A stretch of 64,000 bases of DNA, taken from sequence record PQ471515.1. One strand, written 5' to 3'. The notes below the pieces were generated by a model. That model was not told where the DNA came from. It saw nothing but the letters and a program-made list of their open reading frames with translations, and did not search any database. The position numbers and the translations under genes were made by a program. This document shows, piece after piece, positions 10 through 41,742 of this stretch; position 1 is the first letter of the stretch; each line of letters opens with the position of its first letter. This DNA is from Escherichia phage Turkey3.

Positions 10-405
10 ATGGTGAACTATGTATTAAAAAACAACACATGGTCACTGCATGATGTACAATTAGAAGATATTGGTGAAGTTAGAGTATTTTGCTATGATG
101 GCGATTTGAACGAAACCACTGATTTGAGTAAATGTTTTAATATTTTTCTTGGTTATGAAATCAATAATCATTTTTATTCATTTGATGTGTATTTTGAACG
201 AGTTAAAATCAGAATTGCTAATGTAAATAGTGATTATTATGACACTAGAATTGAATTGAATTTTGACGATATTGATACTGAAGAAAAATTCTTTCAGTAC
301 AATCTCGTAAACGATCTAAATGGATTGACATTTGAGGACATTAAAGCTATACTTAAAGTTCAAAGATTGATTCCAGAAGAGGTTCTAAATCCCTTTAATG
401 ACTAG
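10..405 (+). CDS. hypothetical protein, FQY-motif paralog family
   Basis: ORF 131 aa; C-terminal motif EEKFFQYNLVNDLNGLT shared with ORFs at 398, 1487, 1912, 16862, 41092. Confidence 0.6.
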   Translation: MVNYVLKNNTWSLHDVQLEDIGEVRVFCYDGDLNETTDLSKCFNIFLGYEINNHFYSFDVYFERVKIRIANVNSDYYDTRIELNFDDIDTEEKFFQYNLVNDLNGLTFEDIKAILKVQRLIPEEVLNPFND

Positions 406-757
406 TTTAATAACTCGTATAATGCAAGATGTTCGTAAGAATCTTCATACTGGTAATTTTGATGATCCTAACATAAAAATATTATGTTATGATGTATTCA
501 CACTGGTACATCCATCAGAATCTAATAATTTATACATAGCATATACTTCTCCTAATATTTTGTATCAATTTGATTTATATAGTACAATGGCTAAGATAAC
601 ATTAGATGTTTCTAAGGAGCCAATTTTTATAGCAGTACGTGATTTTGAGTACACAGAAGAGTCATTATTCCAGTACTCAATGATAAATGACATTGGTGAC
701 TTGACATTAGAAGAGATAAATGTTATAGTTGGTATGTGTCGTTTGATTAATCCATAA
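398..757 (+). CDS. hypothetical protein, FQY-motif paralog family
   Basis: ORF 119 aa; C-terminal EESLFQYSMINDIGDLT motif. Confidence 0.6.
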   Translation: MTSLITRIMQDVRKNLHTGNFDDPNIKILCYDVFTLVHPSESNNLYIAYTSPNILYQFDLYSTMAKITLDVSKEPIFIAVRDFEYTEESLFQYSMINDIGDLTLEEINVIVGMCRLINP

Positions 758-770
758 CTCGGAGCTTAAT

Positions 771-962
771 ATGTTTTTGAATTTGTTATGCTTATTTGGT
801 CGTACATTGGTTCTTGCTATTATTCATACACCTGGTATTCGTAATTATGTTTCTTATGAATTTAAGAAAAATTACCACAACAATACTGAAGTTCGTGCAA
901 CTAAGATGTGCAAAGACTTCAATGGAGATGTTCCACCATTCAAGAAGTACGAGGATGAATAA
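771..962 (+). CDS. hypothetical small protein
   Basis: 63-aa ORF filling an intergenic gap; overlaps an alternative-frame ORF, weak. Confidence 0.35.
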   Translation: MFLNLLCLFGRTLVLAIIHTPGIRNYVSYEFKKNYHNNTEVRATKMCKDFNGDVPPFKKYEDE

Positions 963-1246
963 TGGAATTTATTGTTGCACCTGATGAACTAAAAACATTC
1001 ACGTTCCGAGACAATAACAATTATCCTTATACAAATCATTCATTGAATTCATTGCATGTTATATCAATCATTGCATCTGAATACAGAGACAATCCATGTA
1101 TTGATTTTAAAACCACTGATGGTGAATATACATGGGTAGTTCCGAACGATAAATACAGTTATCAGGGTGCAGTGGAGATCCGCGACTCGATTCTAAAGCA
1201 AATCGAAGATGGACATACTCATCCTAAACTAAACATTCAGTACTGA
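962..1246 (+). CDS. hypothetical protein
   Basis: 94-aa ORF, start overlaps the preceding stop. Confidence 0.55.
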   Translation: MEFIVAPDELKTFTFRDNNNYPYTNHSLNSLHVISIIASEYRDNPCIDFKTTDGEYTWVVPNDKYSYQGAVEIRDSILKQIEDGHTHPKLNIQY

Positions 1247-1259
1247 AATCGTTTAACCG

Positions 1260-1307
1260 GATAGCTTCTAGTCGGTACTGAATTCCTCCTTTTGTCTAGA
1301 AGCTATC
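1260..1307. repeat. perfect 12-bp inverted repeat (GATAGCTTCTAG / CTAGAAGCTATC) with 24-nt loop
   Basis: read directly in the sequence, intergenic. Confidence 0.6.
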
Positions 1308-1438
1308 ACTCTTTTAAAGTATAATGATATCACCCTCATGGTTCATTATATTCATTACCCTCTAACAGTATCTTTTTTATTCCTCTTTGATACTGTATTT
1401 TAGAAGTTGACATTTTTACTTCTACTGTGTTATACTTA

Positions 1439-1470
1439 AGGCTGATTCATTATGAATCGGCCTTTTTTCT
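1439..1470 (+). terminator. rho-independent terminator-like hairpin + T-run
   Basis: GGCTGATTCAT-TATGAATCGGCC followed by TTTTTT; lies inside the N-terminal extension of the 1427 ORF, so the gene likely starts at 1487. Confidence 0.5.
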
Positions 1471-1486
1471 TGTGGGGATTAATGTA

Positions 1487-39116: not shown

Positions 39117-39117
39117 C

Positions 39118-39480
39118 ATGAATAATATTGAATTATCTTTTATTGGTCAATTAATGGTAATGGCGTATACATTTATCTTCTCACTGAATGCATTCGTGTG
39201 CATTGGGAAGTACTTCCATAAGCGACCATTATCAAATATATATGATGTAATACAAAGGAGATATAGTCCAGCATATACTGTGTTGAGTACAGCATTCAAT
39301 TTTGGTTTTATTCTAATGCTGGTTTCATTATTAACATCGAGTTCGAATTTTATAACATTTGGTATTATGGTATGTTCACTAACACTGTGTGTGGTTATTC
39401 TCTGTGCATCCGTTGAGTTGCTGGCATGGATGTATAATAAGATTTCCGAAATCCATGAGCGTTTAGGTAAGAGGAACTAA
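39118..39480 (+). CDS. small membrane protein, paralog family (array 2)
   Basis: 120 aa. Confidence 0.6.
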   Translation: MNNIELSFIGQLMVMAYTFIFSLNAFVCIGKYFHKRPLSNIYDVIQRRYSPAYTVLSTAFNFGFILMLVSLLTSSSNFITFGIMVCSLTLCVVILCASVELLAWMYNKISEIHERLGKRN

Positions 39481-39481
39481 A

Positions 39482-39853
39482 ATGAGTTATCGTGAAATAT
39501 TTTCGATCATTACTATTATTGTGTTTAGTTTAGGTTCTTTGATTTGGTTATTGTATTACTTCTGTGTAACCCCAGTATATAATATGCTAAATTCAGTTCG
39601 CTCTGATGTTGGTATTGTTTCTTTTATTATCTTCATGGCATATTATATGCTAAGTATCACAGGTTTGGTTTCGGTTGTTATCTTTGACCTTGGACCGAAT
39701 CAAGATGGCATGGAGATGTGGGAATTGATAACGATGTTTGCATGTATGATACCTGCATTTGGTGTATGTGCTGGTGTATTTTATGGGTTGTGTAAAGGTG
39801 TGAACTACTTAAAAAATATCCACAATACTATTCGTAAAAAACGTATGTTATAA
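39482..39853 (+). CDS. small membrane protein, paralog family (array 2)
   Basis: 123 aa; basic tail. Confidence 0.6.
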   Translation: MSYREIFSIITIIVFSLGSLIWLLYYFCVTPVYNMLNSVRSDVGIVSFIIFMAYYMLSITGLVSVVIFDLGPNQDGMEMWELITMFACMIPAFGVCAGVFYGLCKGVNYLKNIHNTIRKKRML

Positions 39854-39860
39854 TAAAAAA

Positions 39861-39883
39861 TCCAGTACTATAATAGTACTGGA
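39861..39883. terminator. bidirectional terminator hairpin TCCAGTACTATAATAGTACTGGA
   Basis: perfect palindrome flanked by A-run and T-rich tract, between convergent genes. Confidence 0.7.
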
Positions 39884-39889
39884 TTAATT

Positions 39890-41014
39890 TTAATTATCTA
39901 AGCCACCAATTACACTGAACTGTGTGGTAACGTCTGAACTATTATCTATGTAAGTTCTTCTACCAACATAATATAGTTGTCCTTTTGCTTGAATAAAAGT
40001 TACGGTCCCTGTATTAAATGATATAATATCATTGTATGTAATGTCAGGTGGTAGTGATGCTGATAACGCAGTAACTTTACTTAATGCAGCACTAGTACTA
40101 CCATTTATACCAGCAGCAATACTACCAGTACCATAGAACTTATTATCTTTACCAATGAATACGTTGGCTGATGCTTGTGTAGCTGATGTTATTGCCTTAC
40201 CAATTTGGAATGCGGTTCCTATGGTGTATGGTGTGCTCCTGGCAGCGTCTATGCTTTGTGTATATCCATCCCCTAGCTGACCATTAACTTTGTCACCACA
40301 TGAGTATAGAGTACCATTGAGGCTGTATATGATCCCACGGTTAGAGAAGCTAACAGCTTCTGCATTAGTCCATACTGGTGCGGTGTATGAGTTTACACGA
40401 CTAGCGGTCGTTCCTAGACCTAGTATACCATATGTGTTATCACCACATCCAAACCATTGTCCAGAACTGTTTTGATAGAACACTGAACGTTCTGTTGATT
40501 CCATGCGTACAGCATCCACAGCACCACTTTTAACGAACGAAGTTGATGAGGATGTAGTACCAGTACCCAATGCACCATAAGTGTTTGTACCAATCGCATA
40601 GATTGATCCTAGTGGTGTCATAACACGTATACAGTTATATCCCAATTGAACTTTACATTCAAATAGGTTGTCCCATATTTCAGGAACAGCAGAAAATAAA
40701 TTTGTAATTTCGAACCATGATGTTGTCGAACCAGTTAATCCTATACTGCTTTTGTTTCCTAAAATGAAAACAGTTTTGTCCTTCTTAATTATCCATGATG
40801 ATAGAAAGCCTATCTCACAGCTATGAACATTTGATTCGATTTGGGTAATATAATACTTAACGGTGTTATCACCCATAAATGCCGCAGCACCGGATGCAAA
40901 AAGGTTTCCAGTTTGTTTATTTAAAATGTAGTTATTGTTTCCATATACACTAACATCATAAGAACTTTCTTGTTTTTCGTTCCCATAATCAAATAACAAT
41001 ACGAAAGGTAACAT
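39890..41014 (-). CDS. MLPF-family protein, RCC1-like beta-propeller repeats
   Basis: N-terminus MLPFVLLFDYGN; motifs GCGDNTYGILGLGT, CGDKVNGQLGDGYT, GTNTYGALGTGTT. Confidence 0.8.
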   Translation of the reverse strand: MLPFVLLFDYGNEKQESSYDVSVYGNNNYILNKQTGNLFASGAAAFMGDNTVKYYITQIESNVHSCEIGFLSSWIIKKDKTVFILGNKSSIGLTGSTTSWFEITNLFSAVPEIWDNLFECKVQLGYNCIRVMTPLGSIYAIGTNTYGALGTGTTSSSTSFVKSGAVDAVRMESTERSVFYQNSSGQWFGCGDNTYGILGLGTTASRVNSYTAPVWTNAEAVSFSNRGIIYSLNGTLYSCGDKVNGQLGDGYTQSIDAARSTPYTIGTAFQIGKAITSATQASANVFIGKDNKFYGTGSIAAGINGSTSAALSKVTALSASLPPDITYNDIISFNTGTVTFIQAKGQLYYVGRRTYIDNSSDVTTQFSVIGGLDN

Positions 41015-41091
41015 GATAAAATCTCCTTGTGTTATACTTTATTTAATCATTTTATAATGTACAATTTTACAGCGATTTAATTGAGGTACTC

Positions 41092-41742
41092 ATGAATAAA
41101 AGAAGTAAGTTCTATCAAGAATATTTCACTAAACAGAAACGATTCACAAAAAAATACTTTACATCATCCCACCGACCAGTTGCAAGTTACAAACGTCCTA
41201 ATACTAACTATCTTACTGGTGGCAAGTTTAGTGCAAAGTTCGAATTACTTATGCGTGAAAAGAATATCAAGATGCATTACGCAGAGACGAGAAAAAACTC
41301 ATCAATTATTTGCTCTGATTTTCTTGAGTACGGTTGCTTAACTTATAAATTCAATGATGTATATTTGTATATTGATGTTGATTGTAACAGTACTCTTATG
41401 TTTGAGATTTCAATTCACCCAAATCACAACCGTTATATAAACATTAACTTGATTGATAAAGTACTGATTGGTATATCTAGTACTGATGGTGGTGGATTTG
41501 AATTTATTGCTTCAAAATATGATGAAGATTTCGTACTTTACCCAGTACTTGATGATGTGAAAGATATTCTCAATTCATTAAAAGGAAGTCAATACAAATT
41601 ATCTGAAGAACAGCTATTTCAGTACTCACTTATTCATGATGATATCGAGATATACTTAGAGTGTGCGAGAATATTGGAGTATCTTTATAATGAACTAACA
41701 ACAACTGGTAAAGTGACTGCATTCACATTATATAATATGTAA
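41092..41742 (+). CDS. hypothetical protein, FQY-motif paralog family
   Basis: 216 aa; EEQLFQYSLIHDDIEIYL; the only plus-strand gene inside the minus-strand array. Confidence 0.6.
   Translation: MNKRSKFYQEYFTKQKRFTKKYFTSSHRPVASYKRPNTNYLTGGKFSAKFELLMREKNIKMHYAETRKNSSIICSDFLEYGCLTYKFNDVYLYIDVDCNSTLMFEISIHPNHNRYININLIDKVLIGISSTDGGGFEFIASKYDEDFVLYPVLDDVKDILNSLKGSQYKLSEEQLFQYSLIHDDIEIYLECARILEYLYNELTTTGKVTAFTLYNM

Follow-up and report, generated by a model that had tools for sequence, protein, structure and literature searches.

Large viruses can carry expanded gene families that act in host interaction or anti-defence, among them the variable internal-protein loci of T4-like phages and multigene families in poxviruses and African swine fever virus (ASFV). 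Tandem gene expansions also occur in jumbo phages, where arrays have been described in phage G and 121Q (Hua et al. 2017, PMC5646251), and a multi-copy array of 'regulator of chromosome condensation' (RCC1) genes is already known from 121Q, PBECO4 and phAPEC6; GAP32 has one homologue, which mass spectrometry (MS) detected in virions (PMC5259590, PMC7247149). More than 80% of the genes in such 350-kb coliphages are without known function (PMC7247149). Here we analyse a 64,000-nucleotide stretch of Escherichia phage Turkey3 (sequence record PQ471515.1), referred to below as the window, in which a first-pass annotation had reported at least six small proteins with a common signature around a phenylalanine and a glutamine, and had suggested that one of them, encoded at 41092–41742 inside a minus-strand 'MLPF' array, has a functional tie to that array. 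As judged from their translations, profile comparison shows that the six open reading frames (ORFs) are part of a single, very large multigene family that is specific to RaK2-like jumbo phages and that we call the FQ family. Its growth by repeated duplication resembles that of the tandem arrays of phage G and 121Q and of the RCC1 array of 121Q, PBECO4 and phAPEC6, and takes place in the same phages (PMC5646251, PMC5259590, PMC7247149). It differs from these arrays in its low mean column identity (~12%) and in being scattered over at least six genomic clusters. We regard it as a new family of a familiar kind, that of lineage-specific gene expansions in jumbo phages (PMC5646251), and as one that is notable mainly for its size.

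By its nucleotide matches the window is part of a ~380-kb jumbo coliphage of the RaK2-like group. The first 20 kb match WPEC5, vB_Ec-M-J, BF17 and fEgEco12 at 98% identity (over 97–100% of the length) and the 121Q/PBECO4 group at ~84% identity; the genus of vB_Ec-M-J is Asteriusvirus. The G+C content of the window is 30–38%, and its GC skew reverses at ~41 kb, at the same place as the coding-strand switch.

All six reported ORFs were found where they had been placed, each with the signature in the C-terminal third of its translation. A pattern built on the six variants matched 6 of the 252 window ORFs, exactly these six, and had no match in 2000 composition-preserving shuffles, so that the signature withstands the shuffled-sequence control proposed in the first-pass annotation as its refutation. 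A generic core, [DE][DE]xx[FM]Qx[SN], was present in 7 window ORFs compared to 0.08 on average, and never more than 2, in the shuffles. Using the four ORFs 10–405, 398–757, 1487–1903 and 1912–2316 as seeds, we then iterated a family profile over 1503 ORFs (those of the window and of the complete 121Q genome) together with 7515 shuffled decoys. Membership of the superfamily was scored with the ~88-amino-acid (aa) family profile at an expectation value (E) below 1e-3, before a protein's own sequence joined the profile, with the motif at ~55–75% of the protein length. The iteration converged on 62 members in the window and 121Q, with none of the 7515 decoys admitted over its whole course (1 of 8965 in an earlier, smaller run). 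The earlier count of at least six paralogs is therefore borne out and understated. Eight of the members lie in the window, two of them (2276–2734 and 62295–62954) beyond the six reported earlier, and one further ORF is marginal:

10–405, plus strand: family member, N-terminus cut by the window edge (full protein 138 aa in relatives); motif TEEKFFQYNLVND
398–757, plus strand: family member, 119 aa; motif TEESLFQYSMIND; phrog_17453
1487–1903, plus strand: family member, 138 aa; motif TEDMYMQLNFVYD; phrog_35192
1912–2316, plus strand: family member, 134 aa; motif DEDMFFQLSTVYD; gp147 in 121Q, missing in vB_Ec-M-J
2276–2734, plus strand: family member, 152 aa; motif TEEEHFMDSTVKE; entered the iteration at E 3.2e-6
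16862–17377, plus strand: probable family member, 171 aa; motif TEESVFQQSLIHN; phrog_28118; entered at E 8.6e-5
22776–23348, plus strand: possible member, 190 aa, basic N-terminus; motif NEEEYFQESIVTE, core motif present
41092–41742, plus strand: long-form member A, 216 aa, basic N-terminal extension; motif SEEQLFQYSLIHD; entered at E 8.4e-5
62295–62954, plus strand: long-form member B, 219 aa, isoelectric point (pI) 9.3; motif SDEEEFMYSTVID; entered at E 2e-9

For two of these genes, named like the others by their first coordinate, the start was taken from vB_Ec-M-J: the stop-to-stop ORF of 1487 begins at GTG 1427 where the vB_Ec-M-J annotation uses ATG 1487, and that of 2276 is listed from TTG 2264, position 2276 being the start of the vB_Ec-M-J ortholog. 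The match of 22776–23348 to the family hidden Markov model (HMM) is marginal (E 0.0017, above the 1e-3 threshold), and this ORF is not recognised by a profile of the long forms.

All eight window members carry the motif (S/T/D)(E/D)(E/D)-x-hydrophobic-(F/M)-(Q/M)-x-(S/N)-x-(V/I), and its median relative position is 0.68, about two-thirds along the proteins. The four core members are linked by pairwise resemblance along the full length (10/398, E 3e-13; 10/1912, E 1e-5; 1487/1912, E 6e-8). In pairwise comparison, 41092 and 16862 resemble the others only in a ~30-aa region around the motif. A profile of the four core members alone finds 41092 at E 3.6e-4 and 16862 at E 0.19, and both are recruited during the iteration; a check by alignment or HMM had been suggested in the first-pass annotation. 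When either ortholog group was left out and compared to the remaining family profile to profile (hhalign), the match had a P of 3.4e-6 and a probability of 74% for 41092, and a P of 8.8e-7 and a probability of 84% for 16862. On these comparisons both proteins belong to the family probably, though not certainly. The 121Q ortholog of 41092, whose motif SSDLMFQYSLIH lacks the acidic pair, has a poor score on its own. At the conserved residues synonymous codons are mixed (F: TTT 29, TTC 18; Q: CAG 26, CAA 23), and since these vary freely the motif is conserved at the level of the protein, which rules out a DNA repeat or regulatory site.

The complete 121Q genome holds at least 54 members, ~9% of its genes, in clusters at 58–65, 71–74, 78–81, 95, 133, 161–188, 240 and 255–256 kb. 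Within its family clusters (166–189 kb) we also observe sub-threshold ORFs with [DE]xx-hydrophobic-[FM]Q, for example 166217–166840, 167046–167561, 180752–181315, 182477–183061 and 186327–186911. The true size of the family in 121Q is probably 65–75, going by sequence. A HMMER scan of 1.84 billion cluster representatives returned only 27 matches at E <= 1e-3, all of them small proteins that carry the family motif; among the most distant, two come from short metagenomic contigs, where they stand amid more tandem copies. At least 10 members are found within 30 kb of a RaK2-like Klebsiella phage. Word-indexed protein searches, which reach poorly toward distant relatives, gave almost only close orthologs from Asteriusvirus-like phages, whether the query was one member, the six or 62 domain sequences. 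In all of these searches the family is confined to RaK2-like jumbo phages.

Family members appear to turn over quickly. Orthologs in the window and 121Q are 46–77% identical, whereas 67 neighbouring ORFs have a median identity of 87.6%; the family is therefore evolving fast. Gene content changes as well: 1912–2316 is present in the window and in 121Q and absent from vB_Ec-M-J, which is otherwise 98–99% identical over the region. We considered whether the vB_Ec-M-J gene at this place is a fusion of 1912 and 2264, and found that it is the 2264 ortholog, with 1912 missing. Across the family the proteins are 105–230 aa long and mostly acidic, with a median pI of 4.7 and 79% of members below 5.5, compared to 52% of other ORFs of 100–230 aa.

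The common module comprises ~88 residues, with the motif in register in nearly all members of the alignment; in many members the match extends over almost the whole module. The F and the Q are more than 90% conserved; outside the ~15-residue motif the mean column identity is ~12%. An AlphaFold2 model of 10–402 from 66 sequences reached a predicted local distance difference test (pLDDT) score of 82 and a predicted template modelling (pTM) score of 0.77. It consists of a short N-terminal helix, six strands and helices at 85–88, 91–100 and 108–118, of which 91–100 is the motif helix and lies within the highest-confidence blocks. In this one confident model the module is a six-stranded antiparallel sheet of near-free sequence followed by two helices, the first of which is the motif, with the consensus (S/T)EE-x-(F/Y)FQ-x-S-(T/L)-(V/I)-x-D. 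Searching viral structures (BFVD) gave significant matches to orthologs and paralogs and weaker ones to uncharacterised RaK2 and CBB proteins. Foldseek placed p32 chains among the top five, at E values of only 0.2–0.4; compared with the p32/gC1qBP/MAM33 proteins, the family has neither a Pfam MAM33 match nor a PDB sequence match. The predicted fold is without a clear solved relative, and its nearest resemblance appears to be the acidic p32 shape. The label 'prefoldin subunit 5', given to a 62295 ortholog by the Joint Genome Institute (JGI), found no support.

In PHROGs the 62 members are spread over 41 families, none with a known function, and each window member matches its own at E values of 1e-36 to 1e-88. 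The same proteins are thus already listed there (phrog_17453, 13866, 9317, 12674, 15629, 35192, 28118, 34359 and ~33 more), as dozens of unrelated families, where we find one superfamily united by the ~88-aa module and the FQ helix.

We lean towards the view that this is a large lineage-specific family of non-virion host-interaction proteins, in which 41092 owes its position to inherited gene order, no service to the array being seen. The motif helix would pack on the sheet or serve as a shared docking helix, and for either reason the motif alone would survive while the surface of the sheet diversifies. Members would be accessory proteins that stay outside the virion and are expressed from long series of small plus-strand genes, most likely binding or inhibiting varied host or defence targets as an arms-race arsenal. 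The analogy is with the T4-like, poxvirus and ASFV families, which likewise combine many diverged paralogs, fast evolution, presence or absence between close strains and small non-enzymatic proteins; the FQ family has no homology to any known anti-defence protein. On this analogy we hold the host-interaction role with moderate confidence. A bolder form of the idea is tentative and, in our estimate, more doubtful than not. In it ~sixty acidic paralogs on a p32-like scaffold, about a tenth of the genes of a RaK2-like phage, would make up an anti-host arsenal whose hypervariable sheets bind or mimic different host or defence targets. The FQ helix would hold the fold or dock to a common machine, and the basic long forms would be an offshoot that controls or assists the RCC1 array.

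Asteriusvirus-type coliphages are under characterisation for therapy, and ~9% of their gene content, spread over 41 PHROGs, can now be treated as one diverged family with a module, a motif and a fold model. What had been dozens of orphan genes can thereby be tested as one object, with a single structure to solve, the F-Q helix as the target for mutation and one strategy for deleting clusters. Because it evolves fast and differs in copy number between near-identical phages, the family is a candidate determinant of host range or defence evasion.

We also examined the setting of 41092, for which the following features are relevant:

39859–39885, no strand assigned: terminator-like bidirectional hairpin separating the plus-strand block from the first RCC1 gene
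39890–60210, minus strand: the 'MLPF array', 17 genes for RCC1-repeat, Kelch-like and other proteins
41015–41091, no strand assigned: AT-rich spacer of 77 bp between the divergent genes 39890–41014 (minus) and 41092 (plus)
41750–41768, no strand assigned: terminator-like bidirectional hairpin between 41092–41742 (plus) and 41775–42911 (minus)

Array proteins matched the models phrog_4219, PF00415, PF25390 and Kelch, and nearly all of them begin MLPF(V/A)R(M/L)xxYGN. It is literally true, as had been reported, that 41092 is the only plus-strand gene within 39890–60210. It stands between the first and second RCC1 genes. Its 121Q ortholog gp233 (46% identity) is however the last plus-strand gene ahead of the array, and thus outside it, and the JNE01 ortholog (30% identity) is the second-to-last plus-strand gene ahead of the array. 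In the window's clade an extra RCC1 copy, 39890–41014, lies upstream of 41092. Since the 121Q and JNE01 orthologs are outside the array and one extra RCC1 copy is found upstream here, the embedding is a clade-specific arrangement. On the reading we favour, 41092 would be one of two long-form copies in the window with its array-edge place inherited, and would look embedded only because this extra gene stands on its other side. A recent copy that captured 41092 is ruled out for 39890–41014, which must be old, its nearest window paralog being only 25% identical.

From the gene layout 41092 is predicted to be transcribed alone, on the strand opposite to the array. It shares neither the strand nor a predicted operon with the array and has terminator-like hairpins on both sides, such sites being more frequent around it than expected (4 compared to 0.9). 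The two hairpins at 39859–39885 and 41750–41768 are perfect palindromes with the common core CCAGTACT…AGTACTGG, at the two points where the coding strand switches. Of the divergent promoter region proposed for 41015–41091, the divergent spacer is present, with a GAGG ribosome-binding site ahead of the 41092 ATG, but matches to a sigma-70-like promoter there were not above chance (7 sites compared to 12.4 expected in 39700–42000). Homologs of 41092 do not follow RCC1 genes across related phages either: the former were found in 34 records, all of Escherichia or Salmonella phages, and the latter in 61 phage records, and no family member adjoins the RCC1 genes of GAP32, Yersinia phage fHe-Yen9-04 and Klebsiella phage fENko-Kae01. 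Proteins of ~220 aa that are encoded beside the RCC1 genes in these three phages were considered as long forms and proved unrelated. The functional tie suggested for 41092, as chaperone, regulator or immunity partner, thus finds no backing in its strand, its terminators, the place of gp233 or its co-occurrence. A dedicated chaperone or immunity role is unsupported though conceivable, and being 'embedded', which had been over-read, is no evidence of a partner system.

The wider neighbourhood is conserved in outline. Seven tandem plus-strand genes at 37414–39853 encode proteins of 104–123 aa, most with three hydrophobic segments, which are weakly similar to the '3 TM' (three-transmembrane) membrane proteins GAP32_522–527. 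A run of ~115-aa genes next to RCC1 genes also occurs in Yersinia, Erwinia and EJP2 phages, the likeness there being one of gene size and position only. The array neighbourhood is broadly syntenic because this 3-TM tandem family is kept from GAP32 and Yersinia to Escherichia phages.

The long forms 41092 and 62295 nevertheless require separate consideration, as placement relative to the array recurs. Both are ~220 aa in length with a basic N-terminal extension, and with pI values of 7.0 and 9.3 they stand apart, as neutral or basic proteins, from most other members; their ortholog groups align by hhalign over 148 columns (E 6.5e-5, 64% probability). They might be dedicated partners of the RCC1 array, acting as a regulator through the basic extension or as an assembly factor, although we judge this unlikely. 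The idea gains from the fact that the array has long-form genes on either side in the window, in 121Q and in EJP2, where three precede it and one follows after 115 bp, while JNE01 has a copy on one flank, the side checked. In Erwinia phage Hallingskeid two long-form genes stand directly beside the array start and divergent from it, even though its RCC1 proteins are only ~28% identical. The long forms are, however, on the opposite strand with bidirectional terminators between them and the array; 62295 is 2 kb past the other array end, within a tandem run of ~60-aa genes that form another family; and GAP32, fHe-Yen9-04 and fENko-Kae01 have RCC1 genes or arrays without a long-form neighbour. Two tandem paralogs parted by an expanding minus-strand cassette would produce an identical arrangement, and with synteny extending over the region adjacency need not imply function. 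Because the whole neighbourhood is syntenic, the adjacency of the long forms could be inherited gene order only.

Other explanations concern the motif itself. It is quite improbable that otherwise unrelated small proteins have in the conserved segment only a short functional signal, such as a Clp/HslV-type protease or adaptor site or a host-protein docking peptide. Such a signal would fit the low identity outside the motif, the motif-only pairwise resemblance of 41092 and 16862, and the ClpS-like, ClpP-like, HslV-like and ClpA-like proteins encoded by 121Q, but four of the window members can be aligned from end to end, and the ~88-aa module includes the sheet and is covered nearly completely by many members. 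Moreover, the motif is predicted with top confidence as a helix in a compact domain, and the order of strands, motif helix and second helix recurs even in a poor model of 41092. We give still less credence to the possibility that members are packaged virion or internal proteins like the T4 variable internal proteins, with the motif as a signal for packaging or processing. Their small size, variability and number would fit, and some of their 121Q neighbours are annotated as virion proteins (gp78 and gp154, for example), yet in the annotation of the 121Q record none of the 54 members is a 'virion structural protein', unlike other genes there. The T4 capsid-targeting sequence is N-terminal, whereas the conserved part of the FQ proteins is about two-thirds along. 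Chance or composition in an AT-rich genome has a negligible claim: the proteins are indeed rich in D, E, F, N, Y, I and K, which DNA of 35% G+C favours, but the shuffles (0 of 2000 for the pattern) and the decoys (0 of 7515 for the profile) reject such an origin, and [DE]xx[hydrophobic][FM]Q is found in 49 of the 62 members compared to 21 of 1441 other ORFs, many of the 21 within the same gene clusters.

Several points weigh against our preferred account of a host-interaction family with 41092 in an inherited position. Strong matches to the long-form profile in the complete 121Q genome are only gp233 and gp256, which lie at the two ends of the array, within ~1.6 kb of them, and this is beyond what chance placement alone would give. 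The membership of 41092 and 16862 is based on E values of ~1e-4 and hhalign probabilities of 74–84%, and the fold is taken from a single model of a single member (10–402). The AlphaFold model of 41092, from a 38-sequence family alignment, has a pLDDT of 40 and is unusable for fold comparison, even if the order of its secondary structure elements (strands, motif helix, second helix) agrees. Pfam scans of the family matched nothing meaningful, and PDB sequences gave no match to the family profile at E values up to 10. PADLOC also gave no match, which is uninformative here as it covers defence and not anti-defence proteins. Literature searches returned the RCC1 array and the 121Q tandem duplication and found no description of the family. 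The role as an arsenal of binders is itself suggested by analogy with other expanded viral families.

With respect to the array, we note that the MLPF N-terminus is also present on GAP32_001, which MS detected in virions, on GAP32_002, whose annotation is virion structural protein, and on GAP32_530. A variant start, MIPFTRMINFGN, occurs in a gene of an Erwinia phage that likewise carries the annotation of a virion structural protein. By sequence likeness the MLPF segment may be a common virion-attachment module bearing variable distal domains. Turnover of the array is fast: of 12 large array proteins, only 4 find a 121Q best match above 60% identity, and the rest are at 24–31%. The window array, with 17 genes, has its 121Q counterpart at 117089–131255, where there are ~15 gene calls, some of them fragmentary or short; EJP2 has 14 array genes and JNE01 has 9.

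Beyond the array, 60295–63896 on the plus strand holds at least 15 tandem genes of ~60–80 aa, with the pattern …EYY…KL…, a C-terminal VLKLI and an AT skew of 0.19; gene 62295 lies inside this run. It is a candidate for the tandem array noted by Hua et al. In the Klebsiella phage fENko-Kae01 the direct terminal repeat begins on the side of the RCC1 array that matches window 60295–63896. Elsewhere, a gap of ~660 bp at 12229–12893, with no plus-strand ORF of at least 60 aa, separates the sigma-factor gene (11263–12228) from the next small genes, and its counterpart is also unannotated in vB_Ec-M-J and 121Q.

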